Origin: Candidatus Daviesbacteria bacterium
Lineage (GTDB): Bacteria > Patescibacteriota > Microgenomatia > Daviesbacterales > UBA10151
Length of the DNA: 64,000 bases
Assembly: GCA_016176335.1 (NCBI GenBank)
Contig: JACOXI010000004.1
Coordinates: 18,303-82,302, forward strand
Direction: 5' to 3'
Part shown: in pieces, positions 15,131 through 62,445 of the stretch
How positions within the stretch are numbered: position 1 is the first letter of the stretch
How the letters are laid out: every line of letters starts with the position of its first letter
Position numbers and translations under genes: made by a program
The notes under the pieces: generated by a model
The model's database searches: none
The model's input: the letters and a program-made list of their open reading frames with translations, nothing else
Told to the model about the DNA's origin: nothing

Positions 15131-15240
15131 TCTCAAATCTTAGATCTCAAAACTCAAATCTACATCTTAAAACTCAAAACTTTAAAGATTTAAGATTTGA
15201 GTTGTAGTTTTGACATTTGAGTTTTGACATTTGAGATACT
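15131..15240. repeat. Modular intergenic hairpin repeat (CAAAT/ATTTG heptamer-based family), copy 1
   Basis: Left arm tctcaaatcttagatctcaaaactcaaatctacatcttaaaactcaaaac and a near-inverted right arm. The 36-nt unit aaagttttgagttttaagatgtagatttgagttttg recurs inverted at 18705-18742. Confidence 0.7.
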
Positions 15241-15252
15241 ATAGTAAAGATT

Positions 15253-17910: not shown

Positions 17911-18700
17911 ACCCCCAATGAATCTTAGGAAAGTATATGAAGATGAAGATTTACTGGTTATTGACAAACCACCTGGTTTGGTAGTTGAACCCACCAAAAC
18001 AGCTAAAGCCCCAACTCTTGCCGAAATTTTGCAAAAGAGTCATGGAATTGATTTGGAAAGGGGAGGATTAATTCATAGGTTGGATAAAGATACTTCGGGA
18101 GTTTTGCTGGTTGCCAAAACCCAAAAGGCTTTGGCCAACTTACAAGCACAATTTAAGCAAAGAAAAACTAAAAAAGAATATTTGGCGCTGGTACATGGGT
18201 TTGTGGACAAAGAGGGGCAAGTGGAAGGGAACATTGGCAGGAATCCTATTAAAAGAGAGAAGTTTACAGTATTGGCAGATGAAGGCAAGGAGGCAGTTAC
18301 GGAGTATGAACCGGTAGGAAATTTTCAATTTTCAATTTTCAATTTTCAATCAATTTTCAATGATTTAAATGAGATTCAAATGAGGAAACTGGAAAGAATG
18401 AAATATAACCAATTTACTCTGCTGTCCTGTCGTCCTCTTACTGGACGGACACACCAAATTAGGGTACATTTAAAGTATATAAATCATCCGATTGTTTCGG
18501 ACCAAATTTATGCGGGCAGGAAAATGTACAGGTTAGATAAAAGATGGTGTCCAAGGCAATTTTTGCATGCTAAAAAGATTGGATTTTATCATCCTCGGAG
18601 CGGGAAGTGGATGGAGTTGGAGAGTGAGTTACCCTATGATTTAGAAAATGCATTGGGTAATCTCAAATCTCAAATGTCAAATGTCAAAACTATAACTTAA
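17885..18700 (+). CDS. RluA-family pseudouridine synthase (RluD-like) carrying an in-frame heptamer-repeat insertion
   Basis: Catalytic motif HRLDKDTSGVLLVAKT and GRTHQIRVHL. An NFQFSIFNFQSIF stretch is encoded by (ttttcaa)n at about 18320-18362. Confidence 0.85.
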   Translation: MSLVPKRLKPPMNLRKVYEDEDLLVIDKPPGLVVEPTKTAKAPTLAEILQKSHGIDLERGGLIHRLDKDTSGVLLVAKTQKALANLQAQFKQRKTKKEYLALVHGFVDKEGQVEGNIGRNPIKREKFTVLADEGKEAVTEYEPVGNFQFSIFNFQSIFNDLNEIQMRKLERMKYNQFTLLSCRPLTGRTHQIRVHLKYINHPIVSDQIYAGRKMYRLDKRWCPRQFLHAKKIGFYHPRSGKWMELESELPYDLENALGNLKSQMSNVKTIT

Positions 18701-18762
18701 ATCTTTAAAGTTTTGAGTTTTAAGATGTAGATTTGAGTTTTGCGATTTACGTTTTGAGTTAT
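18655..18762. repeat. Modular intergenic hairpin repeat, copy 2 (overlaps the last codons of the rluA-family gene)
   Basis: tctcaaatctcaaatgtcaaatgtcaaaac...aaagttttgagttttaagatgtagatttgagttttgcgatttacgttttgag. Shares units with 15131-15240 and 57335-57520. Confidence 0.7.
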
Positions 18763-26689: not shown

Positions 26690-26697
26690 TTTAAAAA

Positions 26698-26725
26698 TTT
26701 CTAATTTCTAATTTCTAATTTCTAA
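26698..26725. repeat. Heptamer microsatellite (tttctaa)x4
   Basis: Direct tandem tttctaatttctaatttctaatttctaa, visible in the sequence. Confidence 0.8.
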
Positions 26726-27571
26726 ACTAAGAGGGGGAGTAGAGGGGTATATAGAATTATATAAACGTGAAAAATTTAGCGGAAATTCGTGAAAACTAGG
26801 GTTGATACAGTATGATGTAGTTAACAGGTATGAATGTGGAAAACTATAGGTCTCGTGGTGCTCGCTTCGCTTACTCCTTTGCGAGCCTGCGAGTGTTACG
26901 CTACTATTACGTTTGAGTGGTACAATAGCGCTTCTCTCCTTGATAACCTTTATATTTTATCAGCACTAGATTGATATAGTTGCTAATTAAACCCGAAGGA
27001 GTCGGAGAAGAGTGTGTCTTGGACGTACCTGTAACTAAAGCAATAGAAGTGCAAGAATACAGATTGGTGTTTTGTCTTTATGGTTTTAAATTCTTTATCC
27101 TCTTTTAAGCAAAACCTCCTGCTACCCAATTTTGATGTCGGACAATATAAGAAAACAACAAAATCGGAGAAGTGGTCAGATTCTCAAATTCCTTATTAAA
27201 TAAGAGATTTGGTGAGGAAGTTTAAGAATTTTTTCAGGTGCCCAAAAACGGTAATTCCCGTCCAAAATTTTATTATTTTAGAAATTTAAATTTTAAAATA
27301 TATCAATATTTAGTTTGGGCTTTCCTGACAACATAATCTGGATGATGGTAGGGTGGCACCCTCCCCCAATAAGCCGTTTTTGGGCCATTACAGGGCTTGG
27401 TGCCTAAACGTGCCCAGAGCGTAATGAAGAATAGCAGTCATTGTGTTAATGGGCTCACTCCATAATGTTTTGCGGGCCCCGATAGCGTCTAGAAGCTTAT
27501 TTGGTCACTTAGATATATTATATTGCTGGCCTCAAATTACTACTTGACAACACTTATGTAGGCTTGATATT

Positions 27572-28666: not shown

Positions 28667-28939
28667 ATGGATTATTCCGCAGAAAAATTATTTTCCAAGA
28701 AAAATATCATTACCTTTCTTTTGTTGGCAATTATTGCTGCTGCTGTTCCTTTGGGTTTAAAGCTGGTGCAAACCCAACAGATATTAAGATCCCGGGCAGT
28801 TGCCCCGGGAAACGAGGTAACTTTTCCCGAACTTACCAGACAAGACGCGGAGGGAAATCCTCTAACCAATACCCAGCAAATTCAAATTAGGCTGGAATCA
28901 CCGTTTGGCCCGCCGGCAAGTACAACACAAACACAATGA
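28667..28939 (+). CDS. Small membrane-anchored protein resembling the N-terminal module of the downstream giant protein
   Basis: TM helix followed by LKLVQTQQILRSRAVAPG, paralogous to VRLVQQQTQLKSKAVDTCG at the start of 28936..32391. Stop overlaps that gene's start. Confidence 0.4.
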   Translation: MDYSAEKLFSKKNIITFLLLAIIAAAVPLGLKLVQTQQILRSRAVAPGNEVTFPELTRQDAEGNPLTNTQQIQIRLESPFGPPASTTQTQ

Positions 28940-31900
28940 ATTTCTTTGCTCTAAAAAATATAATCGGTTTTTTAATAGTTATAACTTTGATCTCCGGTGT
29001 TGCTATTGGTGTAAGGCTGGTACAGCAGCAAACTCAACTTAAATCCAAAGCAGTTGATACTTGCGGAGATAATCCTGTACCTCCACCTGAAGGTGGTTAT
29101 ACTTGGAAAGCGGATTGTAGTTCGGTATGTAATAGTAATACTGACTGTCCCATAGGAGCTAATAATCAAGAGGGGTGGTGTTATGGATTTGAAGGTGGAG
29201 CAAAGTGTCTTAAATTAGTATCAACTGGAAATGTAGGAACAGGTGCAGCACCTGTGGCAGGGCAAGCCTGCAGTGCTGCTGATGGTTGTGGTGAAAGAAA
29301 TGGCCTCTATTGTCGAGGTTTTGATGGAGGATCTTACACATGGATTTCTGAAACAGATGCTAAGAACTTTTGCTCTAGTCAGCAACGTCTGACTGCCGAG
29401 TGTGAGGGCGTCACCAAAGCTTGGTGTTGGGATACTACTGGTACAGGGGCAGCAGCATGGCATCCCACCCCTCCCGAGGAAGGCAGGCAATGTGACAAGC
29501 GGATCAGTTGCGGCCGTGCAATATGGTTACCCGACCAAGGCAAGAAACTATATTGCCGAAGTTTTAATAACCAGAACGACTTTAGATGGATTGATGAAAA
29601 CACAGCTTTGCAGCGCTGTGCCAGCAAACAGTACCAAACCACCCAATGTACCCCAGACGGCAGGAGCAGTCCGGAGACTACTGCCTGGTGTTGGAATGAT
29701 GGTTTGTGGCGTACCACTACCCCTCCTGCGGGTGGTCCAGATACCCCTGCCTGTACTGTGGATCTTAAAGCTAACGGATCTGATGGACCGGTGACTGTGG
29801 ATAATAATGCCACCGTAACTTTATCCTGGACCTCTCAAAATGCTGACAGAGTTAATGCCACCGGGGCCTGGTCGGGATCAAAAAGTACTTCTGGTTCAGA
29901 AACCACTGATCCATTGTCTGGTCCCAGTAGTTCGACCTTTTCCCTAACTTGTTTTAAGAATAACTCTACCCAAACTTCGGTTGATTCTGTTCAAGTTAAT
30001 GTGAGAGGTCCCGGGGGTGCTGCACCATCTGCCCAAGATTTCTCTATTTCTGCTTCCGCCCCGAACCCGGCAAGTATTACAGCAGGAGCTTCTGCCAGCT
30101 CCACCTCCACCGTCACTATTACCTCACTTAACAGCTTCAACAGCGCTGTGGTTTTATCAGCCGTCTCTCCCCGTACAGATATCACTGCTAGCGTTAATCC
30201 TACCTCCGTTACCCCTGCAGCTAATGGCACAGCAGCCACCAGTACTCTAACCATCACCACCGCTGCTGCTACCCCTGTCGGTAGTTACACCATCAACGTT
30301 ACCGGTACCAGCGGAGCTCTCACCCACCCCGTCGCAGTCCCCCTAACAGTAGTTTCTACTGCTTCTGCTCCTACTGCAGGCAGCAGATGTGACTATGACA
30401 TATTAGATATAAACGGCAGGAGCGTAAAGACTACTGGCCCTATTTATGAAAATGATAGATACACCTTCAGAATTACCATGACCAATACCGGCAGAGCAGG
30501 ACAGAGTGGAGATTGGACCAAATCTAACCAATGGTTGCAGGCACTTGAGAACACCGAATCTGCGTGGAGAATTGCCCAACGCTTTCAATTACCCAAAGAT
30601 CAGGTATCAAAAGATACAAGTGTTGTTTTTAATATAGATGCGACTGCTGGTCCGATTTCGACCCAAGATAAAAACTTTGAGGATAGGCCAACTTCCTTTT
30701 CCATGGCAGAAACCGGCACAGGCCCTTTTGGGGCAACTTGTCCTACGGAAGTAAGAGTCTTAAGAAAGCCGGCAGGTTTGGTATCTACCAAATGTTATGT
30801 CATATCGGAGAATCGAAGTGAAGTAGATAGTGTCTTAAGTTGTGATGATCCTTTGGCAAAACCATATACTAACAATCCCACAATTAGAAACTACACTTTT
30901 AGAGATCAGACTCCCGGAAAAAAGTTCATCTTTGTTAAGTTTTTCGATGTCAATAACCGCCCCAGCAATATGATTACAAAAACCGTTACTTACTCCCCCA
31001 ATCCGGCCATATCAAACGTTCTCTGTGCTTATGGTGGTTCCGGTCTGACCACCGTTTATAATATAACAGGTAATGGTTTCGGCTTGAGGAATGTCAATAA
31101 CAGGCTAAAAGTGGGTGATCAAAATGCCACAATACTGTCATGGGGGTCTGCAGAAATTACTGCCCAAGTTGATCAAAGAGTTGAAGGGGACACTGCTTTG
31201 CAGGTTGCTTTGGAAGATGGAAGAAAGGCTGACGGTTCTTGTGCTGTTGGGATAACCACAGCCACCTTGTCCGTTAAAAATCAATGCTTGAGTGGACAAT
31301 TTGATACGGATAATGTTGATGTGAAACTCTTTAGCAACGGGCCTGAACCGTTTGTCAGACAAACAATCAAAACAGATAAAGAAGGAAAAGCCCAAGGGTT
31401 TATTCCAAAACTTGAGAAAAACAAAAATTACACTATGATTGTTAAAGCTCCCGGTACTCTGGCAAAAGGAGTGGTATTTCGGACAACCTCGGGAACAAGT
31501 GTGATTGGGCCGATTGTTCTGCCTTGTGGAAATATTGCCCCTCTTCCTGTTCCTGATAACGTAATAAATTCATTTGATGTCAGTGCTCTTTTTTCCCAGT
31601 GGAGCTTGGTAAAAGATGTTTCAAAGCCGGCTGATTTGAATAGGGACGGCAGGGTCAACAGTGTTGATTATGCTTTTATGAAGCTTAATTTTAACCAGCA
31701 GGATGACGTATTTACCCTACCGGTTGTTGCGTCTCCTACTCCATCACCATCACCAAGTCCTTCACCTTCAGTTGTTCCTTCTTCCTTTTCCAGCGCCGAT
31801 GTATTTCGTGATTATATTCTGAATGCCTATGGTTTTACCGCAACTGCGGCGGATTTTATAAAGCGTAATTCTACTATTACAGTGAATGACTTAAGCGATT

Positions 31901-32391
31901 CCTGTAGCGGTGGTGGAGGTTTTTGGATTCCGGCCACTAGAAATGTTCAATTGAATTGTGCCCAACACGAAGGGACAGTACATGAACTTTCTCATGTTTG
32001 GTGGCATACATTCAGGTTACAAAATCCAGAGATGGTTAAAGGACTAGCACGGGATGTGGTAAGGCTTGCAGATGGTGATGGATCATCAATTGCTGTGGCA
32101 TTTGCCCGTACCTATGTATACGGAGATGGAGGAAGTTTTAAGGGAATGTATTGTAATAATGGTTGTGTTGCTGATGTCCATAATCTTCAAGATAGTGATT
32201 TCGATCTAACAGAGGCAGCCAGTAATGCTAAAATTAATGATTGGGAAATTTATGCTGGTTTGTCCTCTTGGACTGTGGGGAGGTTTAAAACTGGTTCAAG
32301 AGCGTTACCATCTTACTTTTGGAAGTATTTCGAACCACAATTTACAGGAACAATCCAGATAACACCATACTATGACGGAGGACATGCTTGA
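28936..32391 (+). CDS. Giant surface protein: N-terminal signal anchor, Cys-rich repeats, Ig-like (CARDB/PKD-like) domains, dockerin-like module, Pro/Ser linker, C-terminal HExxH zincin-like domain
   Basis: Three Cys-rich repeats (YCRGF...WI.E..A...C...Q..T..C........AWCW). Ig-like repeats (TVTLSWTSQNADRVNATGAWSG; TINVTGTSGALTHPVAVPLTVV). Dockerin-type Ca-loop repeats NSFDVSALFSQW and DLNRDGRVNSVDYAFMKLNF. SPTPSPSPSPSPS linker. TVHELSHVWWH metalloprotease motif. GC content is visibly higher than the surrounding sequence. Confidence 0.8.
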   Translation: MNFFALKNIIGFLIVITLISGVAIGVRLVQQQTQLKSKAVDTCGDNPVPPPEGGYTWKADCSSVCNSNTDCPIGANNQEGWCYGFEGGAKCLKLVSTGNVGTGAAPVAGQACSAADGCGERNGLYCRGFDGGSYTWISETDAKNFCSSQQRLTAECEGVTKAWCWDTTGTGAAAWHPTPPEEGRQCDKRISCGRAIWLPDQGKKLYCRSFNNQNDFRWIDENTALQRCASKQYQTTQCTPDGRSSPETTAWCWNDGLWRTTTPPAGGPDTPACTVDLKANGSDGPVTVDNNATVTLSWTSQNADRVNATGAWSGSKSTSGSETTDPLSGPSSSTFSLTCFKNNSTQTSVDSVQVNVRGPGGAAPSAQDFSISASAPNPASITAGASASSTSTVTITSLNSFNSAVVLSAVSPRTDITASVNPTSVTPAANGTAATSTLTITTAAATPVGSYTINVTGTSGALTHPVAVPLTVVSTASAPTAGSRCDYDILDINGRSVKTTGPIYENDRYTFRITMTNTGRAGQSGDWTKSNQWLQALENTESAWRIAQRFQLPKDQVSKDTSVVFNIDATAGPISTQDKNFEDRPTSFSMAETGTGPFGATCPTEVRVLRKPAGLVSTKCYVISENRSEVDSVLSCDDPLAKPYTNNPTIRNYTFRDQTPGKKFIFVKFFDVNNRPSNMITKTVTYSPNPAISNVLCAYGGSGLTTVYNITGNGFGLRNVNNRLKVGDQNATILSWGSAEITAQVDQRVEGDTALQVALEDGRKADGSCAVGITTATLSVKNQCLSGQFDTDNVDVKLFSNGPEPFVRQTIKTDKEGKAQGFIPKLEKNKNYTMIVKAPGTLAKGVVFRTTSGTSVIGPIVLPCGNIAPLPVPDNVINSFDVSALFSQWSLVKDVSKPADLNRDGRVNSVDYAFMKLNFNQQDDVFTLPVVASPTPSPSPSPSPSVVPSSFSSADVFRDYILNAYGFTATAADFIKRNSTITVNDLSDSCSGGGGFWIPATRNVQLNCAQHEGTVHELSHVWWHTFRLQNPEMVKGLARDVVRLADGDGSSIAVAFARTYVYGDGGSFKGMYCNNGCVADVHNLQDSDFDLTEAASNAKINDWEIYAGLSSWTVGRFKTGSRALPSYFWKYFEPQFTGTIQITPYYDGGHA

Positions 32392-33008: not shown

Positions 33009-33802
33009 GAATTCAAAATGTTTTTCAAACTGCCTTCGGCAGAACAAAATTCAAAATTCAAAATTACAATTCAAAATTTAAAATTTTTAAAACTTTTTAC
33101 TTTTTACTTGCATTTTTGACTTTTAATTTTTACCTTTTAACTTTTCCCACCCCTGCGCTTGCCCAAGCCGCCACCCTGTCCCTTTCTCCCTCCTCGGGCA
33201 CATTTAACAGGAGCTGTACCATTACTTTGGATATCAGATTGGATACAGCGGGAGCTCAAACAGACGGTACAGATGCGATCTTAACTTATGACTCATCAAG
33301 ACTTACTGCTACCTCAATTACAAGCGGAAATATCTATCCTGATTATCCCGGAAATAATATTGATGATACGAACGGGAAGATTACTGTTTCAGGTTTAGCC
33401 TCTGTTTCTTCTGCTTTTTCCGGGCAAGGAAGTGTTGCTACGGTCAAATTTACGATTAAAGATAACGCTCCAACAGGTGCAACTCAAGTCAAGTTTGATT
33501 TTGACCCGTCCGATAAAAGTAAAACTACAGATTCCAATGTAGTACAAAGAGGTACTGCTTCGGATATATTAAGTTCGGTGGTGAATGGAAATTATAATGT
33601 TGGAACAGGCACATGCGCCGCCGCACCCGCAACAGCCGTAAAAGGAGGACAAGGAGCTGTTTCCACACCATCAGGTAAAACTCTCGATCAGTTAGTAGAC
33701 AAAACAGGAAAAGGACCAGGCACACCCGAGCTCACCTTTACCCTGACAATTGTGGGATCGGTTTTGGTAGTGTTGGGAATTTTAGGATTGGCACTACTCT
33801 AA
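33005..33802 (+). CDS. Cohesin-domain protein with signal peptide and C-terminal membrane anchor (paralog of 32424..33008)
   Basis: ILTYDSSRLTATSITSGNIYPDY, NGKITVSGLAS and GSVATVKFTIKDNAPTGATQVKF match the cohesin consensus. C-terminal TM LTIVGSVLVVLGILGLALL. The N-terminal ~30 codons are built from the repeat family (ctgccttcggcagaacaaa + attcaaa units). Confidence 0.65.
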   Translation: MRIQNVFQTAFGRTKFKIQNYNSKFKIFKTFYFLLAFLTFNFYLLTFPTPALAQAATLSLSPSSGTFNRSCTITLDIRLDTAGAQTDGTDAILTYDSSRLTATSITSGNIYPDYPGNNIDDTNGKITVSGLASVSSAFSGQGSVATVKFTIKDNAPTGATQVKFDFDPSDKSKTTDSNVVQRGTASDILSSVVNGNYNVGTGTCAAAPATAVKGGQGAVSTPSGKTLDQLVDKTGKGPGTPELTFTLTIVGSVLVVLGILGLALL

Positions 33803-33930
33803 TCTCAAATCTTAGATCTCCCGTCAAAGACGAGGCTCGCTCGCCTCGTGGCGAAGCAATGGGCCTCTGGCGGCAAATCGCAAATCTGCAACTTATGACA
33901 TTTGAGTTTTGAGATAATAATGTCGTACAA
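33803..33930. repeat. Modular intergenic hairpin repeat, copy 3, with embedded GC-rich palindromic insert
   Basis: tctcaaatcttagatctc ... [cgaggctcgctcgcctcgtggcgaagc ...] ... acatttgagttttgagata. The termini match copy 1. Confidence 0.65.
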
Positions 33931-33935
33931 TATTA

Positions 33936-34826
33936 TTGATGCAACTGTCCAATCTAATTACTGACTTCCTGGAATATTTAGAACTTGAGCGAAACGCCTC
34001 CCAACTGACAATTAAAAACTATGACTATTACCTGAAAAGATTTTTGGAATTTGCCCGCTCGCCATCGCTACGCTCAGGCGTTAGCGGGCGAGCCGGAAAT
34101 ATTAGCCCCAGAGAAATCAATCTGGACTTGGTCGGGAAATACAGGCTATACCTGTCCCGAAAGCCGCTAAAACGCATCACCCAAAACTTTTTTCTGATTG
34201 CCCTGCGGGCATTTTTGAGATACTTGGCGCAAATTGATATCACCACCCTACCTCCCCAAAAAGTGGAGCTTTGGGAAACAGACGCGCGACCGATAAATTT
34301 TTTGGACCAAACTCACTTGAGATTTCTGCTTAAGGCTCCTGATATAACTAAAAAGGATGGTATGCGCGACCGTGCTATTTTGGAGATGCTTTTTTCAACC
34401 GGTCTGCTTGTATCGGAATTGGCATCCTTAAATTGCGACACAATTAATTTAGGAAGTTGGGAATTTCGGATCATTGGAAAAGGAGGGAAAGAGCGGGTGG
34501 TTTTCATTTCCGATTCCGCTCATGGATGGTTGAGAAAATACCTAATGGTCAGAAAAGATACTTTTAAGCCCTTATTTATCAGGTTTCAAGGAAAAGTTGA
34601 CCCTGCAAACGGCGGTGAATCAATGAGATTGACTACTCGCTCTATTGAGAGAATCGTAGAAAAATATGCTAGCCGGCTGGGTTTGCCTATCAAGGTTACT
34701 CCCCACACATTAAGGCACTCATTTGCAATGGATTTGCTGACCTCCGGCGAGGATATAAGATCTGTTCAAGAAATGTTAGGTCACTCCTCTATCTCCACCA
34801 CGCAAATTTATACACGTCACAAATAA
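33936..34826 (+). CDS. Tyrosine site-specific recombinase XerD/XerC-like, with a GC-rich in-frame insertion
   Basis: Catalytic motifs HTLRHSFAMDLLTSGEDIRSVQEMLGHSSISTTQIYTRH. Insertion RSPSLRSGVSGRAGN is encoded by gcccgctcgccatcgctacgctcaggcgttagcgggcgagcc. Confidence 0.85.
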   Translation: MMQLSNLITDFLEYLELERNASQLTIKNYDYYLKRFLEFARSPSLRSGVSGRAGNISPREINLDLVGKYRLYLSRKPLKRITQNFFLIALRAFLRYLAQIDITTLPPQKVELWETDARPINFLDQTHLRFLLKAPDITKKDGMRDRAILEMLFSTGLLVSELASLNCDTINLGSWEFRIIGKGGKERVVFISDSAHGWLRKYLMVRKDTFKPLFIRFQGKVDPANGGESMRLTTRSIERIVEKYASRLGLPIKVTPHTLRHSFAMDLLTSGEDIRSVQEMLGHSSISTTQIYTRHK

Positions 34827-37959: not shown

Positions 37960-40533
37960 TTAATCGCCATTTTTAGCATCAGCTGTTTTTTCTTTAGATG
38001 AAACAGTTGTTGCCGCCGCCACTTTTTCCCCTGCTCTTACCCTCATTAAAATCACTCCTTGGGTTTGTCTCTGCAGGGTTGGAACTTCTTTAAGGCTCAT
38101 TTTAATCAGCTGACCTTTGGTTGAGGTTAAAACCAACGTATCTTTGGATTTGTCCACAATCTGGGCTGTCACTATCTGACCTGTTTTAGCAGTAATTTGT
38201 GCCGCTTTCACTCCTTGCCCTCCCCTTCCCTGCCTTGACCAGCCTGTTGTTTTAGTTTTCTTTCCTAAACCATTTTCCATCACTACCAAAAGCTCTCCCT
38301 CGATCTTCCCTAATGTATTTAAAGATACCACCTCATCATCTTTTCCAAGCCTTATGCCTCTAACTCCAGATGTATCTCTATGAGTGGGTTTAACCCCTTT
38401 TTCCCAAAACCTGATAGACTTACCTTTTTTGGAAACAATGATGACATCATCATTCCCTGTTGTTGGGGCAACCCAACCCAAAATATCACCCGGGTCAAGC
38501 TTGATTGCAACCAAGCCACTTTTTCTGATATTGGCATATTCATCTAAAGAAGTTTTTTTAACAGTGCCGCGCCCGGTACACATAAAGAAGTATTTGGCGC
38601 TTTCACGGTTTCCTCGGGTGGTCAACACAGCAGTAACTTTCTCCTCTTGTTCAACATTAATCAGATTTACAATGGCTTGACCTTTGGCCGCCCTTTGAGT
38701 TTCAGGAATTTCCCAAACTTTAATTTGGAAAACCCTACCTTTATCTGTAAAAAATAATAAACTGTCATGGGTCTGGGTATAGAAGATATGGGACACTGCA
38801 TCTGTTTCTTTGGTGGAGATCCCCATCACTCCTTTTCCACCCCGCTGTTGTGTCCTAAAAGAGTGAGGAGCTTGTCTTTTGATATATCCCCCCTCGGTGA
38901 TGGTGACAATAGTGATCTCATTTGGTACCAAATCTTCCTCGTTAAACTCACCAATTTTTTGTTTATAAACCCTTGTTCTTCTGTCATCGGCATACTTTTC
39001 TTTAATTCTGACAAGTTCCTCTTTGATCACTTTCAGGATTTTTTCAGGGTGGAGAAGCAAGTCCTCAAGGTAGGCAATCAGTTCTTTAACCATCTTTAGT
39101 TCATCTTCAATCTTTTGCCGCTCCAGCGCAGCCAGACGCCGCAGTTGCATGTCTAAAATAGCAACAGACTGGATCTCCGTAAGCTTAAATTTAACCATCA
39201 AATTCTGCTTTGCAGAATCCGCATCCTTACTTTTTTTGATGGTTTCAATGACCTCGTCAATATGCAAAACAGCGATTTGTAATCCTTCCAAGATATGTTC
39301 CCTGGCGCGAGCTTCGCTCAACTCAAATTCAGACCTTCTTCGCACAATAGTTTGCCTGTGTCTTATAAACTCCTCCAAAATGTGTTTTAAGGTCAAAAGG
39401 TGCGGGACTCCGTCAACCAAAGCAACCAAATTAACATTAAATACAGATTGCATGGCTGTTGATTTATAGAGGTTGTTTAAGAGGGATTGGGGTTTGGCAT
39501 CCCTTTTTAGATCAAACACGATCCGAACCATTTGTTTTCTGTCTGATTCGTCCCGCAAATCCCCAATCCCCTCCAGTTTTTTGTCTTTTACCATGTCTGC
39601 AATTCTGGCAATTAATGTTGCTTTGTTAACTTGGTACGGAAGTTCCGAGACAATAATCTGCATTTTTCCTGCCGGCGTCTCATCAATTTCCGCTTTTGCT
39701 CTTATGACAATCCGCCCCTTCCCTGTGCCATAGGCTGCCAAAATTTCACTTTGATCATAAATTGAGCCTCCTGTTGGAAAGTCTGGGCCTTTGACAAATC
39801 GCACCAGGTCTTCAACAGTAGCAGCAGAAGAAAAGCTATCAGTCTTCAGTACCGCTTCGCCCGCCTTTGGCGAGGCTTCGCTCTCCGTCGTCAGATCTGA
39901 TGACTGATGACTGATGACTGATGACTCTTTTGCCGGGTGTTCTATCATATAAATTAGGGCATCGCACACCTCCCCCAAGTTATGCGGCGGGATTTGAGTT
40001 GCCATACCAACAGCAATACCGGAGGCGCCATTAAGCAGTAAATTAGGTATAACAGATGGGAGTACAACAGGTTCTTGTATAGTTCCTGAATAATTATCCA
40101 CAAAATCAACGGTATTTTTGCCAATATCCCGCAGTAATTCCCCGGAGATTGCTGCCAACCGTGCTTCCGTATACCTCATGGCTGCAGGTGAATCCCCATC
40201 AATAGATCCAAAATTTCCCTGTCCGTCAATCAACATATATCTCATGGAGAAATTTTGAGCCATCCTGACCATGGCCTCATAAACCGGAGCATCGCCGTGC
40301 GGGTGTAAATTCTTCAAAACCTCACCAACCACAGCTGCACTTTTTTGATATCTAGACGTGTGGTGTAATCCCTGCTCATGCATGGCAAAAACAATTCTTC
40401 TTTGCACGGGCTTTAAGCCGTCCCGCACATCAGGCAGGGCGCGGGACACAATAACAGACATGGCATAGTCAAGGTATGACCTTTTCATCTCTTCTATAAT
40501 TGGAGATGGTTGTATTTTGCCGATGTTTGCCAT
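37960..40533 (-). CDS. gyrA: DNA gyrase subunit A, with a ~30-aa in-frame insertion containing a (tgatgac)x4 tandem and a GC-rich palindromic segment
   Basis: N-terminal [10 protein letters not shown] and [11 protein letters not shown]-terminal beta-pinwheel repeats. Insertion [31 protein letters not shown] lies before GPDFPTGG, encoded at about 39840-39925. Confidence 0.9.
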
Positions 40534-40643: not shown

Positions 40644-41405
40644 ATGAATGAACTTGATAGACAAGCTTTGGATGAATTTCGGCACGAGCATGAGGATGTG
40701 CGACCGAATCCTGGACAGGGCAGAAGATTATTAAGGGCCACATTAAAAACCAAAGAAGCAATGCTCCGAAGTATTAAGTCAGGTGATGTCGAATTAAAAG
40801 GAGAATTGCTTGATTGTCGAGCCTGGCTATTTGCAACATATCAAAAGGTGCCCTCTCTTCCTCATCTTTGTGCTGCATATTCAATAGATTTGATTGAATT
40901 AGTTGTGACGAGAGGATACCTTGAACCTCTTTTAGAAAAAATAAAAAGGATGCCATATCTGTCCACTAAGGAGGACATCGTAGAAGCAGTTAGTTGGTGT
41001 GACATTATGCAGGGTGGAACGCTTACATTAGGTCATATTTATGCTGCGGAAAGAGAAATTGAGGGTGTAAGTGAACAGGCAATTGCTGCAACAGCCACTT
41101 TGGTGACGCAGAACGAAGGTGACGCAGCTCAATTATATCTTAAGTTACAGCCAGGTTTAAAAGCTCTCTCTACCGAGGCAGCCCAGTTGTTGTTAGGTGA
41201 CAAAGGACGAACAGGTCTTCCATTATTGGAGGCGCAAGTACAAAAATTAGAAAGAGTCAAATTAGGAAAAGGAGAGATTCCTCTACCCTTACCTTATCAC
41301 CCATTTCAAATAGTTAGTATGCTTTTAGCAGGAGCAGAAATGGCTAGAGACTCTTATCAGGTTCTTTACCCTATTGCAGAACAACTACCTCCATACAGAC
41401 CTTAA
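40644..41405 (+). CDS. Hypothetical soluble protein, compositionally distinct (higher GC)
   Basis: 253-aa ORF with no TM segments and no recognisable motif. Visibly higher GC than its neighbours. Confidence 0.5.
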   Translation: MNELDRQALDEFRHEHEDVRPNPGQGRRLLRATLKTKEAMLRSIKSGDVELKGELLDCRAWLFATYQKVPSLPHLCAAYSIDLIELVVTRGYLEPLLEKIKRMPYLSTKEDIVEAVSWCDIMQGGTLTLGHIYAAEREIEGVSEQAIAATATLVTQNEGDAAQLYLKLQPGLKALSTEAAQLLLGDKGRTGLPLLEAQVQKLERVKLGKGEIPLPLPYHPFQIVSMLLAGAEMARDSYQVLYPIAEQLPPYRP

Positions 41406-42058
41406 CTTTTTCCTGATATTTTTTTCCAGACTCTGAATGGATATTTTTTAGGCCAATTACGCCAGGCCTGTTTGTCTCTGTAAAGAGGAAATTCACTCTT
41501 TTTGACCCAATGAAGTTTATCAGGATCACGAATATGGTCAACAAAAACTTTGCCGTTTAGATGGTCAATTTCGTGCTGGAAAATTCTGGCTATATAACCT
41601 TTGTGTGTCTCGTTTACCAATCTTCCATCAGTCCCATAAGCATGGATTTTGATTGATGTTGGGCGGGAGACAATGCCGCAAACCCTGCCCATCGAATAAC
41701 ATCCTTCATACCACTCCCCTTTTTGTTTTGCAGTCCATGTGATTTCTGGATTGATGTAGATATGTAAATCTCCAACTTTTCCTCGCCCGCAACGCCTCGC
41801 AAGCTCGTCTTGCGTGGCGGGCAGGCCTTTTCCATCAGCCTTTACATCCACCAAAATTATTCTTTTGGAAATGCCGATTTGCGGTGCAGCCAAACCCACC
41901 ATGATAGGTTTGGTTGGATCCTTCTGCTCCCCATAGGCTACGTTTAGCATGGTTTGGATAATATTTTGAATTGTTTTAGAATTGATTTCAGATCTGGGGA
42001 TTTCTTTGGCAATTTTTGAAAGAACCGGATCATTTGGCTTAAGAAATGGATTTCTCAT
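41402..42058 (-). CDS. def: Peptide deformylase with a ~20-aa GC-rich in-frame insertion
   Basis: PDF motifs GLAAPQIG, EGCYS, HEIDHLNG. Insertion GLPATQDELARRCGRGKVGDL is encoded by cctcgcccgcaacgcctcgcaagctcgtcttgcgtggcgggcagg at about 41790-41835. Confidence 0.8.
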   Translation of the reverse strand: MRNPFLKPNDPVLSKIAKEIPRSEINSKTIQNIIQTMLNVAYGEQKDPTKPIMVGLAAPQIGISKRIILVDVKADGKGLPATQDELARRCGRGKVGDLHIYINPEITWTAKQKGEWYEGCYSMGRVCGIVSRPTSIKIHAYGTDGRLVNETHKGYIARIFQHEIDHLNGKVFVDHIRDPDKLHWVKKSEFPLYRDKQAWRNWPKKYPFRVWKKISGKS

Positions 42059-44484: not shown

Positions 44485-45897
44485 TTAAAAATATTGGTCT
44501 GGGAGGTCATTTTCAAGGAGAATAACTGCTCTCGCAGTTGCGAGGGTGGACAGAAGTTTGATTCCATTTTGTGTTGAAGATACTAAATGAATTTTGGTTT
44601 TTGGAAAATCGGATAAGCCTTTTAGTAAATCTTCTTTGGCGTTTTCTCCGACGATGATAAACTCATCTACTACTTTGGCAGTATCTTTGGCAAATTCTTG
44701 ATTTTCTTTGGAGCTTTCTTGCCCTAACTCCACTAACCCCGGGGTAATAATAATTCTTTGTGTTGCCGGATATTCTGATAACAATTTTAGAGAGGCTCTT
44801 GAGGCCTCGGGGTTGGTGTTATAGGTATTATCAATTATCGTCATACTGCCCTGTTTTTTAATCTCTAATCTATGTGGAGTCGGAAGCATGAGTTTTGCTC
44901 TGTCCTTAATTTCAGAAAGTGTAAGTCCTAATTGTAACGCGGCCACTGACGCGGCCAGCAAATTTTGTACATGATGTTCGCCTGTTAATGGAATTTTAAT
45001 GTCCGCTTTTCCTTTGGGAGTGTGTATGGTAAATTCTGTCCCATCAGTTCCTGTTTTAATGTCAGTTGCATAAAATGGATCATTATTACTTCCATAAAAT
45101 ATAACTTTGGCAGATAAACTGGAAGCATTATTTTTTATCTGTTCATAGGTACTGTTTAAAATAGCTGTTCCATTCTTTTCTAAAGCTTGTGGCAGTTCAA
45201 ATTTAGCATGGGCTATATTTTCCAAAGTGCCAAATGCTTGCAGATGCTGGGGAGCAACAGCTGTGATAATTCCTATTTGCGGTTTTACTAAATTGGCAAT
45301 TTTTGCAATTTCTCCTCTTTTATAAGCCCCTATTTCACAAATAAAAATATCTGTTTTTTCTTTAACCAAATCCATGACAGTTTGGGCAATACCTATCGGG
45401 GTATTAAAACTTTTTGGGGTTTTAACAACATAATATTTTTTAAAAAGAAGTGTATATAAAATATCTTTGGTGGAAGTTTTACCGAAAGAACCTGTGATTG
45501 CCACAACTTTTAAATTAGGCAATTTAGCTAATGTTTCTTTTGCTTGAGAAAGAATTTTCCCTTTTAGATAACTTTCCAAAGGTGTATATAAAAAGTTTGA
45601 GATCACTAAAAATACAGGAGAAAAGATAAGCAGAAAAAGAAAGATCAAATAAAGAGATATCAAGTTTGGAGATATACTGGCGGTAATATATATGCTCACC
45701 ATGATAATCAAAACAGTTGAGGTGATAAAAAGAGCCAAAGCTTTCTTAGTCCATTCCAGTTGGTGTTTTTTTTGTAAGTTCCTTCTGGTTGGATTTTTGA
45801 GAAACCATCTTAAATAATCTTGGGAATTATATTCAAAAACTTGGTAAATATATAAATGATCAAATAACGGAAAAATTTTAGATAATAATTTTTTCAT
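44485..45897 (-). CDS. murF: UDP-N-acetylmuramoyl-tripeptide--D-alanyl-D-alanine ligase with an N-terminal transmembrane extension
   Basis: Mur ligase P-loop ITGSFGKTSTKD and the MurF-type DNTYNTNPEAS motif. The first ~110 aa contain 2-3 TM helices in place of the usual MurF N-domain. Confidence 0.75.
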   Translation of the reverse strand: MKKLLSKIFPLFDHLYIYQVFEYNSQDYLRWFLKNPTRRNLQKKHQLEWTKKALALFITSTVLIIMVSIYITASISPNLISLYLIFLFLLIFSPVFLVISNFLYTPLESYLKGKILSQAKETLAKLPNLKVVAITGSFGKTSTKDILYTLLFKKYYVVKTPKSFNTPIGIAQTVMDLVKEKTDIFICEIGAYKRGEIAKIANLVKPQIGIITAVAPQHLQAFGTLENIAHAKFELPQALEKNGTAILNSTYEQIKNNASSLSAKVIFYGSNNDPFYATDIKTGTDGTEFTIHTPKGKADIKIPLTGEHHVQNLLAASVAALQLGLTLSEIKDRAKLMLPTPHRLEIKKQGSMTIIDNTYNTNPEASRASLKLLSEYPATQRIIITPGLVELGQESSKENQEFAKDTAKVVDEFIIVGENAKEDLLKGLSDFPKTKIHLVSSTQNGIKLLSTLATARAVILLENDLPDQYF

Positions 45898-45962
45898 AAG
45901 GTAACCCTTCGACTGGTTCGACTACTTCGACTTCGCTCACCACAAGTCCGCTCAGGGTGAAA

Positions 45963-49650: not shown

Positions 49651-51246
49651 ATGGCATTTTCAAGAATACTTCCTCTAACCGCTATTTTTTTAATATTTTT
49701 TACCCTCTTTGTCTTTTTGTCCATTAGAACTATGACATCTGTCCCTTTTTATGATTTTGATGAAGCACATAGAGCAGAAAATGCCAAACGGATGAAAGAA
49801 TACAAAAGTTTCTTTGTTCCTTTGACTGGTTCTTCCTATGATAGAGTTGAGCATTTAAAGATTCCTTTTAGGGAAAATGGAGATTTTTATCTTTATTACC
49901 ATTTGGAAAGACCTCCTCTAATCTATATTCTGATGTTTATATCCACCACCATTTTTGGTGATGTTGAATGGGCTTATCGTTTACCCTCATTTCTATTTGG
50001 AATCTTAACTATAGCTTGCTTGATATTTTTTATCAAAAAAGAGACAGGTAATATATTCGCAATCTCAATAGGACTTTTATCTTTAATTACTTCAGCTGAC
50101 CTTTGGTTATCCTCACAATATGCCCAGATGGATACGGGCATAACTTTTTTCTTAACAGCTAGTTTGTTGACTCTTATATATTTTGTTCAGAGCCGGAAAA
50201 CTTTTTTAATATTTTTATCTGGCATATTTTTTGGTTTTGCATTACTTAGTAAATTACAGCCTGCTGTGATTTTTATCTTTCCCCTGATCGGCTTGTTAAT
50301 TTTAAGAAAGATTCATATTGCTGATTTATTTAAATTTGGATTGGGGTTTTTAATAATTTTTCTACCCTGGATGATTCATCTAATTGTAAAATTTGGCATA
50401 ACAGATGCAATTCGAATTATGCCGGGCTTTGCTCTAACTTCTGCATCAATTATAAACATCCATCAAAAAGCTCCCATTTTTTGGTATATGCGTTGGTGGT
50501 GGGATAGTTTCCGACCCGGGTGGACGATATTTTTGGGACTCTTGATTTTTGATATTGTATCGAAAAATTTAAATTGGAAAAAGATAACCCTATTATTCTA
50601 TATATTTGGAGGTTTACTTTCATTTTCAATCGCCATTAATAAGATCTGGTGGTATGTATTACCTCTGATACCGGCTATTTGTTATTATATTTTTCTTTCT
50701 GTTAATGATTATATTCAAAATGAAAAAAAGGCACTTGATAATCTATCTTTTACAATTGTGGTAGCATCCTTACCAATATTTTTGAGGTCTTCAAATTTAA
50801 TCAGTATGATCTATGGGATTTCAATTACCACTATTGTTTTTCTTATCTTAAAAAATAAATTATCAATTAAAATAAACCCCAGAATAAAAAAACAAACTAT
50901 TTTTTACATTGTTGTAGCTTTCAGTCTGCTGCTATTCTCTTTACAATTTCCTAAAATCACCCCTTATCACAGAAATGTCAAGGAAGTGGCTCTGTATTAC
51001 AAAAATTTGTCTTATCCCAAGTGTTTATGGCTTGGAGATATGCCAGGTGAGGCAGTGTTATTTTACTCAAATGCAGGAGAGGTACCACCGCTTAATCAAA
51101 CCAATCAAACAACACAAATTTTCTCAAACTGTAAAGATAACTTCCTGATAACTCCTGAAAGGTATAATGGTAACAAACCAATCATAAGTAGAGGAAGTAT
51201 CAGACTTTATCAATTAACAAAAGATTCTAAATGGTTATCTGAATAA
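49651..51246 (+). CDS. ArnT/PMT-like (GT-C, family 39/83) integral membrane glycosyltransferase
   Basis: About 11-13 TM helices. The first extracytoplasmic loop has the conserved DFDEAHRAE-type acidic motif of PMT/ArnT-like GT-C enzymes. It sits next to the polyprenyl-P sugar synthesis genes. Confidence 0.65.
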   Translation: MAFSRILPLTAIFLIFFTLFVFLSIRTMTSVPFYDFDEAHRAENAKRMKEYKSFFVPLTGSSYDRVEHLKIPFRENGDFYLYYHLERPPLIYILMFISTTIFGDVEWAYRLPSFLFGILTIACLIFFIKKETGNIFAISIGLLSLITSADLWLSSQYAQMDTGITFFLTASLLTLIYFVQSRKTFLIFLSGIFFGFALLSKLQPAVIFIFPLIGLLILRKIHIADLFKFGLGFLIIFLPWMIHLIVKFGITDAIRIMPGFALTSASIINIHQKAPIFWYMRWWWDSFRPGWTIFLGLLIFDIVSKNLNWKKITLLFYIFGGLLSFSIAINKIWWYVLPLIPAICYYIFLSVNDYIQNEKKALDNLSFTIVVASLPIFLRSSNLISMIYGISITTIVFLILKNKLSIKINPRIKKQTIFYIVVAFSLLLFSLQFPKITPYHRNVKEVALYYKNLSYPKCLWLGDMPGEAVLFYSNAGEVPPLNQTNQTTQIFSNCKDNFLITPERYNGNKPIISRGSIRLYQLTKDSKWLSE

Positions 51247-52566
51247 TTTTTCAACTGCTGTATTAAATTTTCTTCCCCTATCAAATTCGTTCTGAAATAA
51301 ATTAAAAGAAGTGGCTGCAGGAGAGAAGAGAATAATATCACCGGATTTTACTTCTACTTTTACATCTTCAAGCAGCTTTTCCAGATCATTATATGGACCA
51401 TATATTTTGAGATTGCTTCTCCGCCTGCTGGCGGATCGCAATGACGAAAGGATAGAATCAGTGGAGTCACCTTCTAAGAAAAATACTTTTTTAACATTTT
51501 CATCTACAACCTTTGAAAACTCTTTATAATCCATCCCTTTGTTCATCCCGCCGCAGATTAAAATACAATTTGGAAAAGTTTTTATAGCTTGAATAGCTGC
51601 ATCAGGAACTGTGGCTGTAGTATCGTTATAAATCTTAATTCCATTCCATTCTTTTATTAACTCCATTCTGAATAGTACTCCTTTAAATTTGGAGATGGTA
51701 TCCAGAATCTGTTCCTTTGGGATATCAAATGTTTTACCCAAAGCTAACGTAGCTGCTATATTAGATTTATTATGTTTACCCATAAGGACCGGCTTAAAAT
51801 CTTCTGGCAAATCAGACACAGAATAAAAAATAATTTGCCCCTGAAACCCTTTTAAAAATTCAGGATTATTTAAAGAGGGATCGGCTTTATTTATAAAGAT
51901 AAAATCATCAGGAGTTTGATAAAGGCCAATTATTTTTTTTGAATAAATATACTCATCCATTGATTTGTAATAATTTAAATGATCAGGATATATATTTGTT
52001 ATGATTGCCCACCTGGGGGAAACTTTATGTTGGTCAAATGCCTCAAGCTGAAAAGATGATATTTCCAATACAACCAGAGTTTTTTCGTCAACTTGATCAA
52101 TTGTATCCAAAACACTTTTGCCGATATTGCCTGCCAAAACCGTATTTTTACCTCTAGCTTTCAAAACCTCATAAATTAGCGAAGCTGTTGTGGATTTTCC
52201 TTTTGTTCCTGTAACTCCAATAATTTGTTCTGGTTTAACATAATCTAGAAAAATTCCCATATCCTGCTCAACTCTTTTACCCAATTTTCTGGCATATTCA
52301 ATAAAAGAATTTCCAGGTTTTACTGCCGGGTTTCTAATAATTGTATCTGCCCAGTCAAAATCCTTGTGTTTATGTCCACCTAAAGTATAGGTGATTTCCG
52401 GATAATTTTTAAGCTGATCAAGAGATGATTGTAAAATTTCTTCTTTCCTTAAATCAGTAACTTTAACTTGCGCACCTTGTTTGGCAAAAAATTGGGCGGA
52501 TCCTACTCCTCCCTGGTTTAAGCCCAGCCCAAAAATAAGAACCTTAATATTTTTAAATTTATTCAT
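51235..52566 (-). CDS. murD: UDP-N-acetylmuramoylalanine--D-glutamate ligase
   Basis: N-terminal Rossmann-like VLIFGLGLNQGG. Mur ligase P-loop GVTGTKGKSTTASL. Confidence 0.85.
   Translation of the reverse strand: MNKFKNIKVLIFGLGLNQGGVGSAQFFAKQGAQVKVTDLRKEEILQSSLDQLKNYPEITYTLGGHKHKDFDWADTIIRNPAVKPGNSFIEYARKLGKRVEQDMGIFLDYVKPEQIIGVTGTKGKSTTASLIYEVLKARGKNTVLAGNIGKSVLDTIDQVDEKTLVVLEISSFQLEAFDQHKVSPRWAIITNIYPDHLNYYKSMDEYIYSKKIIGLYQTPDDFIFINKADPSLNNPEFLKGFQGQIIFYSVSDLPEDFKPVLMGKHNKSNIAATLALGKTFDIPKEQILDTISKFKGVLFRMELIKEWNGIKIYNDTTATVPDAAIQAIKTFPNCILICGGMNKGMDYKEFSKVVDENVKKVFFLEGDSTDSILSSLRSASRRRSNLKIYGPYNDLEKLLEDVKVEVKSGDIILFSPAATSFNLFQNEFDRGRKFNTAVEKLFR

Positions 52567-53991: not shown

Positions 53992-54008
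<17 letters not shown>
53181..54008 (+). CDS. murI: Glutamate racemase
   Basis: PIGVFDSGIGGLTV and the second catalytic region LILGCTHYPLL. An alternative start at 53205 would avoid the divergent 2-nt overlap. Confidence 0.8.
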
Positions 54009-57317
<3,309 letters not shown>

Positions 57318-57334: not shown

Positions 57335-57520
57335 CAAAATAATCTCAAATGTTAGATCTTAAATGTCAATCCTTCGATTACACTCAGGATGATACTGAGC
57401 GAAGTCGAAGTATCAAAACTACAACTTTTAACTGCCTTCGGCAGAACAAATCTAAAATCTACTAAAAAGTTTTAAGATTTACGATATAGATTTGCGTTTT
57501 GCGATTTGAGTTTTGAGTTA
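57335..57520. repeat. Modular intergenic hairpin repeat, copy 4 (composite)
   Basis: aatctcaaatgttagatcttaaatgtcaat...ctgagcgaagtcgaagtatc...ctgccttcggcagaacaaa...gatttgcgttttgcgatttgagttttgag. Shares sub-modules with 15131, 18655, 33803, 33018-33090 and 45900-45950. Confidence 0.65.
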
Positions 57521-59961: not shown

Positions 59962-60035
59962 GGGTAAGGGTAAACCGTAAAGGGTAAAGAAAAAAAATAC
60001 TTTCCCCTTAACGTTTCACGCTTTACCCTAACATT

Positions 60036-61088: not shown

Positions 61089-61109
61089 CTTAAGCTGCTT
61101 AACTCAAAT

Positions 61110-62312: not shown

Positions 62313-62445
62313 GCTTGCGAGAACGTCGCTACTATTGAAATCGTTGCTTCAATAGTGACTTTGTTCTCTAAAGTTGACCACCTCTTTTTAATTTTGCTTT
62401 TTCGCCTCTTGACGAAACATAATTGTTTGTGAATACAATGGAAGG

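Follow-up and report, generated by a model that had tools for sequence, protein, structure and literature searches.

Short GC-rich hairpin segments in frame within housekeeping genes of a Daviesbacteria genome

The DNA analysed here is a 64-kb stretch of a Daviesbacteria genome (referred to as the window, or WIN; 38.7% GC), in which short GC-rich segments lie in frame inside gyrA, def, murC, murD and the gene of a XerD-like recombinase. Daviesbacteria are placed among the Microgenomates, one of the groups within the candidate phyla radiation (CPR). The host genes, whose identities were established by Pfam and PDB comparison, are as follows.

37960-40533, reverse strand: gyrA
41402-42058, reverse strand: def
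33936-34826, forward strand: xerD-like tyrosine recombinase gene, XerC/D type
53992-55281, reverse strand: murC
51235-52566, reverse strand: murD

For comparison we used 80 loci around the gyrA homologues of GTDB species representatives (labelled L001 and so on), of which about 48 are from Daviesbacteria and the remainder from Levy-, Gottesman- and Curtissbacteria and related groups. Each related genome contributes ~20 kb of sequence, for a total of ~1.5 Mb. The 120 closest homologues each of GyrA and Def (240 in total) constitute the protein sets.

In-frame segments in the host genes

The initial annotation had proposed GC-rich in-frame segments inside gyrA, def, the xerD-like gene and murC, and each of these genes does carry one such segment, 39-108 nt long and 51-73% GC, with the open reading frame (ORF) running through it in all four. 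Alignment with relatives delimits the insert boundaries exactly in all four genes. The inserts are real, although they add 13-36 residues rather than the 15-30 first estimated. Canonical homologues were said to be without these residues, and comparisons of GyrA and Def with solved structures agree. Other copies inside genes had been overlooked: one in murD, one at the N-terminus of murC, and an array in an M1 aminopeptidase gene (see below). Peptides predicted across insert junctions include ADGKGLPATQDELAR and CGRGKVGDLHIYINPEITWTAK. The features within the host genes are as follows.

39826-39933, reverse strand: gyrA in-frame insert, 108 nt, 36 residues, GC 0.51, a long imperfect palindrome
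39854-39881, reverse strand: GC-rich core nested in the gyrA insert, GCGAAGC-CTCGCCAAAGGCGG-GCGAAGC, a small hairpin between 7-nt direct repeats
41781-41825, reverse strand: def in-frame insert, 45-nt palindrome CCTGCCCGCCACGCAAGACGAGCTTGCGAGGCGTTGCGGGCGAGG, 15 residues LPATQDELARRCGRG, GC 0.73
34056-34094, forward strand: xerD-like in-frame insert, 39-nt palindrome CGCTCGCCATCGCTACGCTCAGGCGTTAGCGGGCGAGCC, 13 residues RSPSLRSGVSGRA, GC 0.72
54748-54792, reverse strand: murC site-2 in-frame insert, 45 nt, 15 residues, GC 0.60
55073-55123, reverse strand: murC site-1 (N-terminus) double hairpin, GCTTCCCACTTGACGAGTGGGAAG plus GACCCCGATTTAATCGGGGT, 15 residues
51411-51446, reverse strand: murD in-frame unit, CGTCATTGCGA-TCCGCCAGCAGGCGGA-GAAGCAATC, peptide SSLRSASRRRSNL

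An artefact of assembly was considered and rejected: the identical insert-bearing Def protein is found in both NCBI and Logan assemblies, and the same type of insert occurs in several independent metagenome-assembled genomes.

At def, the bare loop (ADGKG-KVG) is present in 14 of 18 syntenic loci and in 103 of the 120 homologues, and the 45-nt palindrome is carried by the window, L005, L015 and two or three further homologues. Other hairpins at the same site encode PLRRSESEAR, LPAGRQ or SHSSSG, and all 17 Def inserts are in frame. Relative to solved structures the extra residues number 11-20 and fall in one loop. An AlphaFold model of Def, built with 96 homologues, has a mean pLDDT of 89.8, with values below 50 at residues 78-82 and 88-90 only; the model is of low confidence nowhere but in the insert, which is flanked by strands 67-71 and 98-109. 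The insert folds well as DNA (z -3.65). Both the def unit and its family consensus are free of stop codons in all six frames, a property that 1.1% of random 45-nt windows have. Five of the six frames are open in the gyrA core, murC site 2 and murD units, and three in the xerD unit.

The inner 26 nt of the def palindrome in the window are inverted relative to those of L005 and L015, while the outer arms have the same orientation. From the alignment the palindrome centre appears to have flipped; that a second copy inserted in the opposite orientation is less likely. The def gene of L007 (8077-8114) has the 45-nt palindrome at a second site, adjoining the conserved EGCYS motif; this copy is 95% identical and encodes the same peptide (CYSTG[LPATPRKLGLRGGRG]GVCG). 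In the def gene of L017 (9584-9607) an unrelated TTCCCAC..GTGGGAA hairpin occupies the usual loop. Even in an enzyme as small as Def there are at least two permissive sites, and at least four types of hairpin have been taken up.

The xerD insert is the strongest 50-nt hairpin of the window (-17.2 kcal/mol; z -4.01). Its site is empty (FLEFA-GD) in ~35 of 47 relatives, and is occupied by a different, 24-nt CGTTCGACAGGCTCAGGRCAGG unit in L008, L026 and L035 and by 18 nt in L028. Filled and empty alleles at def and xerD differ by the palindrome alone, and the flanks are identical around the 45-, 39- and 24-nt segments by which alleles of def, xerD and murC differ. We note that seven residues, WTDPKTK or similar, which are present in almost every Daviesbacteria relative, are missing from the window recombinase close to the insert, at 34140-34170, following ..YRLYLSR; this is a small deletion beside the insertion.

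The two murC sites differ in nature. The segment at site 2 had been described as palindromic, which is not borne out since its fold z is +0.56; it derives from the CCTGAGCGAAGTCGAAGG unit by internal duplication and is not a palindrome, and TRF reports a period-10 duplication at 54769-54788. L034 has a simple CCTGTCCTGAGCGGAGTCGAAGG unit at this site, which is empty in ~21 of 32 relatives. The double hairpin at site 1 folds very strongly (z -7.6). The murD unit is built of GTCAT, a palindrome and AATC (z -4.03). Both murC site 1 and the murD site are filled or empty among the relatives in the same manner as the other sites.

The gyrA insert is larger and composite. It has a core at 39846-39897 (GC 0.63), a left arm of (GTCATCA)x4 at 39898-39925, which reads (TGATGAC)x4 on the forward strand, and a right arm, CTGAAGACTGAT, at 39838-39849. 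The corresponding residues of GyrA (~203-238) have no counterpart in the solved structures of the E. coli and M. tuberculosis proteins and map between E. coli residues ~198 and 204. The full insert has a DNA fold z of -2.03, and its minimum free energy of -41.2 kcal/mol compares with a mean of -22.3 for gyrA segments of the same length (z -3.15); a 76-nt piece yields a z of only -1.03, the full 111 nt being required for the signal.

The gyrA site, between MIEHP and (D/E)ATVEDL, is empty in ~34 of 113 homologues, and the others have 3-56 hypervariable residues; in all 79 clean alleles the insert length is divisible by three. The site is variable even in Levy- and Gottesmanbacteria that are 57-60% identical, with a loop of 8-58 aa, and is thus an old permissive loop that has repeatedly received hairpin DNA. 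It is accordingly not a virgin site, and hairpin DNA was placed into a loop that was already hypervariable in Microgenomates. At the DNA level many of the gyrA inserts are inverted heptamer arrays (GTCATCA, GAGTCAA, CCATCAG, AAATCAG), and others are pairs of GTCATTGCGAG..GAAGCAATC units, mutually inverted. Of 38 inserts from Daviesbacteria, 11 are much more stable when folded than the gyrA controls (z < -2), and the others resemble ordinary loops.

The outer heptamer palindrome of the gyrA insert is common to the window, L006, L007, L008 and L047. Only the window, L008 and L007 (where it is longer) have the GC-rich centre; in the window it consists of 21 nt flanked by GCGAAGC direct repeats, and the otherwise homologous inserts of L006 and L047 are without these 21 nt. 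A 28-nt copy of the core, 93% identical, is intergenic in L043 (6315-6342). In L008 and L016 (10600-10720) the gyrA flanks are ~95% identical and the inserts, of 120 and 117 nt, cannot be aligned, which points to either very fast turnover or allelic replacement; L008 also has the 24-nt xerD insert, and L016 does not. The filled and empty states of the sites are patchy on an approximate GyrA tree. Some GyrA proteins of Daviesbacteria and other Microgenomates reach ~1,260-1,350 aa and contain intein and homing-endonuclease domains PF14890 and PF14528 (homologues P0049, P0064, P0073, P0109, P0115, P0116 and P0119); these true inteins are placed elsewhere than the hairpin site.

Repeat families in the window and in other genomes

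We scanned the window for hairpins by calculating folding energies with DNA parameters for all 50-nt windows, alongside a composition-matched control. The three strongest hairpins in the 64 kb are those of xerD, the murC N-terminus (-17.0 kcal/mol) and def (-15.3 kcal/mol), and the best value in the control is -11.8 kcal/mol; 15 windows are at or below -12 kcal/mol compared to none in the control. Counting perfect stems of at least 7 bp is not discriminating (12 observed and 6.4 expected in the window), and Rfam at gathering thresholds gave no match in the window.

The inserts had also been said to share short words, and the enrichment at the eight sites listed by the initial annotation is indeed above chance. 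These sites make up 0.6% of the window and hold all three occurrences of GCGGGCGA (0.3 expected), six of seven of GCGAGC, three of four of CGCTCAGG and both of CTCGCCCGC. The words were picked after the fact, so that the comparative data carry more weight. By eye, the def and xerD inserts have a common 17-nt left end (CTCGCCCGC[T]AACGCCT) and a GCCCGC...GCGGGC stem, and CCGCTTCGCC is common to the gyrA core and a second type of Def insert (L003). The inserts are thus better described as several related families than as the single family first suggested.

Copies are dispersed well beyond these sites. The def unit recurs in a Levybacteria spacer (L068, 90% identical) and in a 1,129-codon ORF of L058 (83% identical). 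A scan of metagenomes with the pattern GCCCGCAACRCC-N8-24-CGTGGCGGGC recovered the def-type palindrome in at least 120 contigs, mostly of 34-50% GC, some of the high-GC matches being due to chance. Among the matches listed, 76 of 120 copies lie inside open frames of at least 120 codons, and the host genes, recognised by motif, include those for UvrD/PcrA, AlaRS, MnmA, ribosomal protein L1, GatA, TatD and an RseP-like protease. Across the loci, the GCTTCCCAC-N7-GTGGGAA hairpin (peptide ASHLTSGN) is present in at least six different genes, and GTCATTGCGA units occur in many ORFs and spacers. The sites are thus polymorphic and the units recur elsewhere, and the inserts are not conserved lineage-specific loops devoid of nucleotide similarity.

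Further elements of the window lie between genes or within the M1 aminopeptidase gene, as follows.

33800-33920, no strand: intergenic; inverted heptamer arms (AATCTCA.../...TTTGAGA) around the GC-rich hairpin GAGGCTCGCTCGCCTCGTGGCGAAGC; z -2.5 to -2.9
57340-57520, no strand: intergenic; heptamer arrays and the hairpin CCTTCGATTACACTCAG-gatgata-CTGAGCGAAGTCGAAG; murC site-2 word family
45897-45958, no strand: intergenic; CTTCGAC(T) run ending in CGCTCAGGG, related to the murC site-2 family; no hairpin (z +0.83)
26850-26900, no strand: intergenic; GC-rich imperfect hairpin GCTCGCTTCGC...GCGAGCCTGCGAG; z -1.85; family assignment uncertain
12320-12381, forward strand: AT-rich heptamer array, KYQNSNVKSQNYMLNVKT, in the M1 aminopeptidase gene; shares 78-82% identity with heptamer repeats between genes

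Four intergenic copies had been reported initially. Of these, 33836-33890 and 57385-57420 are hairpins (fold z -3.9 for 57360-57420), although the latter has only 42% GC, and 45900-45950 shares related words but does not form a hairpin. No significant copies of the 26850-26900 element were found elsewhere.

Among the tandem repeats of the window, arrays of 7-nt period are predominant (~21 of 67 rows). They are found at 15129-15235, 18659-18760, 26696-26725 and 57491-57519, and within ORFs at 12323-12373, 18320-18361, 33045-33145 and 63297-63355; inverted heptamer arrays often form long AT-rich intergenic hairpins (z -4.6 for 15125-15245). We note separately that a 1,151-codon ORF at 28936-32391 lies in the GC-richest part of the window (43-45%) and has several GC-rich islands and moderate hairpins, one of them at 29226-29290 (-12.1 kcal/mol).

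Small GIY-YIG genes beside the repeats

A regular-expression search for GIY-YIG ORFs in the comparison loci found none. Searching with tblastn and approximate consensus sequences, followed by Pfam, then gave three ORFs of ~90 aa, in L047, L055 and L017, with matches to PF01541 at E values of 1e-14 to 1e-18; NCBIfam gave only a weak match of small GIY-YIG proteins, to an intron endonuclease model. All three lie beside repeat units. GTCATTGCGAG.. units, of the GTCATTGCGA...GAAGCAATC family to which the murD unit belongs, flank the ORF on both sides in L047 and upstream in L055, and the ORF of L017 is bracketed on both sides by GTCATYCTGAGCGA..GAAGRATC units. The def-type palindrome, which has no GTCAT flank, is positioned 5-36 nt from a different GIY-YIG ORF, of 77-94 aa; at least 14 contigs among the 120 or more recovered from metagenomes show this.

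This arrangement has a parallel in Neisseria, where the NTS repeats (CGTCATTCCCGCG..CGGGAATCYRG, containing dRS3) and related SRM hairpins of 20-50 nt flank small GIY-YIG genes (Ssn); the Ssn nucleases cut the hairpin-bearing strand as single-stranded DNA, and only rarely does an NTS lie within a gene, the figure for N. meningitidis being 2% (Chenal et al. 2025, PMC11893778). Adjacency, together with this analogy, suggests a mobilising role for the GIY-YIG proteins of the CPR.

The 77-94-aa GIY-YIG ORF has a setting of its own, 0-30 nt upstream of an intact tRNA gene whose identity varies (Leu, Val, Ile, Asn, Lys, Arg, Pro and others). Examples are at L098 7006-7414, L100 392-793, L111 7611-8028, L134 1032-1410 and L171 666-1055, with others in L087, L093, L110, L153 and L167. 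An exact repeat of the first 18-21 nt of the tRNA is present upstream of the ORF in three of the five checked (L098, L134 and L171), and L100 and L111 have diverged tRNA-like 5' stretches only. The def-type palindrome is located in the D-loop of a partial tRNA copy. Its sequence context suggests a mobile cassette which carries the nuclease and is directed at tRNA genes.

A type IV pilus or competence-like cluster, encoding a T2SSE ATPase, a PilC-like T2SSF protein, several N_methyl pseudopilins and PilM, is present at 58189-63941 of the window and at L201 1834-9578. This is of interest here since, in Neisseria, it is incoming single-stranded DNA on which the Ssn/NTS systems act.

Origin of the inserts and relation to known elements

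The initial suggestion of small mobile insertions that land in coding sequence without disrupting the frame is supported by the polymorphism of the sites, the recurrence of the units at non-homologous places, and the conservation of frame. The distribution of the units suggests that they move. We think it probable that the inserts are hairpin families of the REP or Neisseria NTS type, of ~20-50 nt, which have been copied through the Microgenomates, filtered for frame, translated, and likely mobilised by GIY-YIG nucleases. Copies would be added to new places, probably via single-stranded DNA hairpin intermediates, and because the genome is gene-dense most of them would fall in coding sequence. 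A copy would survive only if its length is a multiple of three, it is free of stops, and it lands in a dispensable surface loop; in an AT-rich genome the GC-rich palindromes are almost stop-free in six frames, which would favour survival. Surviving copies would simply be translated as extra loop residues, and the inserted peptides are presumably made. Following insertion the palindrome centre may flip, further hairpins may insert inside the existing one, slippage may produce duplications such as the heptamer arrays and that in murC, and copies may be deleted or replaced. The likely mobiliser would be a small, free-standing Ssn-like GIY-YIG nuclease whose gene lies at another place in the genome, and every hairpin family would have a nuclease gene of its own.

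An alternative is that the segments are generated locally at hairpin-forming DNA, by template switching or gene conversion at stalled forks using short homology, with no dedicated nuclease or transposase and with the GIY-YIG adjacency incidental. The piling up of different families at the same sites, the nested addition between short direct repeats (GCGAAGC), the 2-3-nt microhomology at junctions, the flipping of centres, which is typical of palindrome recombination, and the lack of a nuclease gene in the window all speak for this. However, the distance from the def-type palindrome to a GIY-YIG ORF is 36 nt or less far more often than expected of random placement, SRM-like units bracket GIY-YIG genes in three loci, and these associations fit a published and experimentally supported hairpin-nuclease pairing (PMC11893778), such that we regard purely local generation as unlikely. 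A simpler proposal still is that these are ordinary lineage-specific hypervariable loops, made in place by point mutation and slippage, with words in common since GC-rich stems look alike. The variability of the gyrA loop in Levy- and Gottesmanbacteria, the non-palindromic nature of most gyrA variants, the slippage-like heptamer arrays and murC duplication, and the post hoc choice of words all speak for this. It is contradicted by the def unit of 38-45 nt, copies of which, 90-97% identical, are present at another site of def, in a spacer of Levybacteria and within unrelated genes of at least 120 metagenome contigs. The gyrA core copy in L043 and the clean presence and absence of 45-, 39- and 24-nt segments between identical flanks, at def, xerD and murC, also speak against it, and we consider it quite improbable.

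Removal of the inserts before the protein functions is most improbable, whether by excision from the RNA, by intein-like splicing, or by translational bypass of the sort known for byp elements in yeast mitochondria. Strong hairpins could in principle direct bypass or processing, and both self-splicing rRNA insertions in CPR bacteria and the true inteins of some GyrA homologues (~1,300 aa, PF14528/PF14890) provide precedents. Skipped elements need not be in frame or stop-free, though, whereas all 79 gyrA alleles and all Def variants are, which argues for plain translation rather than removal. The inserts, at 13-36 aa, are far below intein size (~130 aa at minimum); they start with A, L, R or P, with no Cys, Ser or Thr at the N-junction, and none of the C-junctions (..FSS/A, ..GRG/K, ..GRA/G and ..VER/Y) is His-Asn. 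Rfam returned no match. Frame conservation and size led us to reject the intein, bypass and intron readings, and the initial judgement that intein-like removal was unlikely is upheld by size, junction residues and frame. DNA-uptake sequences were also set aside; these are 10-12 nt and arise by substitution, with no indels.

Several observations weigh against a nuclease-mobilised origin. Neither the 64-kb window nor the next 8 kb past its right end, a stretch of type IV pilus genes, yielded a GIY-YIG gene, so that the source genome may lack the mobiliser. The Ssn nucleases have been shown only to cut single-stranded DNA and to limit transformation, not to spread repeats (PMC11893778). The published SRM pattern, HGTCWYN(0-2)YYVSBRHN(0-5)WNVSBRGN(0-2)RNCYNB, has no matches in the window and is weakly enriched in the 1.5 Mb of loci (9 matches compared to 1-4 in controls); in the absence of a match in the window we do not file the elements as SRMs. 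At gyrA, 27 of the 38 loop variants have z > -2 and are not palindromic, so that part of the variability is ordinary loop evolution. The neighbour-joining tree is poorly resolved, and counts of gain and loss are consequently soft. Different families recur at the same sites, as they might if units arose locally or nested preferentially into hairpins instead of transposing freely. Finally, no target-site duplication or conserved target was found at the junctions, only microhomology of 2-3 nt (AGG at def, GCC at xerD), although the lack of target duplication fits movement of a hairpin type rather than that of MITEs, the miniature transposable elements with inverted repeats.

The closest functional analogue is the Rickettsia palindromic element (RPE), and the closest structural relatives are NTS/SRM and REP. 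RPEs, as summarised from Ogata et al. (2000/2002) in PMC10969869, are palindromic repeats of several families that lie in frame in unrelated housekeeping genes of a small AT-rich genome, are translated as extra segments compatible with the fold, and also have copies in spacers. The CPR elements likewise comprise several families inserted in frame into unrelated protein genes, with copies in spacers. By the same account RPEs are ~100-150 bp with a conserved peptide per family, whereas the units here are 20-50 nt (24-45 for those tested, with the composite gyrA insert at 108), and the same unit is read in several frames and in both orientations. The host is moreover a CPR bacterium, families are stacked at the same sites, and two of them occur beside GIY-YIG genes.

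The murD unit, CGTCATTGCGA..GAAGCAATC, resembles NTS/SRM (CGTCATTCCCGCG..CGGGAATC) in its GTCAT 5' flank, hairpin and AATC 3' end. The existence of many hairpin/nuclease pairs is a further point of likeness, and the bracketing of ~90-aa single-domain GIY-YIG genes may be another: it is seen in L047, L055 and L017, while the window itself has no nuclease gene. In contrast, GTCAT is absent from the def, xerD and gyrA-core units, whose stems are of the GCCCGC...GCGGGC form, the def-type palindrome pairs with a different small GIY-YIG subtype, and copies are common inside essential genes, where NTS are rare. Like the repetitive extragenic palindromes (REP) and their mosaics (BIME), the units are short GC-rich imperfect palindromes with no terminal inverted repeats or target duplication, which cluster and nest into mosaics. 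REP/BIME elements are thought to move as single-stranded DNA hairpins, and the RAYT proteins are Y1 transposases similar to those of IS200/IS605. REPs are extragenic by definition, whereas most of the copies listed here are inside ORFs, and the associated gene found is a GIY-YIG nuclease and not an HUH enzyme, albeit with no systematic Y1/RAYT search made.

Two other systems are similar by description. The G+C-rich clusters of yeast mitochondria are optional GC-rich palindromes in a very AT-rich genome, some of them in frame in var1, as are some of the optional palindromes here, although their host is an organelle. Cyanobacterial STRRs are tandem heptanucleotide arrays described as intergenic, similar to the (GTCATCA)n, (GAGTCAA)n and (AATCTCA)n arrays here, some of which are inside ORFs. 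MITEs (Correia, ERIC and Nezha) are also small non-autonomous repeats that can sit in genes, with some in-frame fusions (PMC10969869); the terminal inverted repeats derived from insertion sequences, the target-site duplications and the length of usually >100 bp that characterise them were not found here. Our literature search yielded no description of hairpin repeats in coding genes of CPR/Patescibacteria, which is no proof that none exists.

A broader proposal, which we put forward as possible and decidedly tentative, is that small Ssn-like GIY-YIG nucleases of the CPR each mobilise a cognate single-stranded DNA hairpin, and that such hairpins have colonised permissive loops in many of the essential proteins, a large share of them, among which are gyrase, deformylase, the Mur ligases, UvrD, AlaRS and L1, as a genome-wide translated layer with fast turnover. 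The nuclease cassettes would land before tRNA genes with a 5' tRNA fragment, the hairpin being in the D-loop.

Palindromic DNA translated within housekeeping genes has so far been treated as a peculiarity of Rickettsia. The CPR would provide a second, independent and apparently more pervasive case, with much smaller units and several families, and six-frame openness combined with permissive loops is suggested as the means by which such units survive in coding sequence. The location of two families beside GIY-YIG genes of the Ssn kind makes the spread of REP/NTS-like hairpins testable. Because of the inserts, proteins look more divergent than they are and metagenomic sequences acquire spurious low-complexity 'motifs' (such as LPATPRKLGLRGGRG, VIASEAKQS and ASHLTSGN); the inserts can also mislead alignments, phylogenies and structure predictions for the CPR. 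They raise the question of what share of the 'extra' protein sequence in these bacteria is selfish DNA rather than adaptation. If it is true that nucleases mobilise them, this would be a new class of protein-sequence diversification, by hairpin-nuclease pairs, and the first evidence of Ssn-type systems spreading their own repeats.

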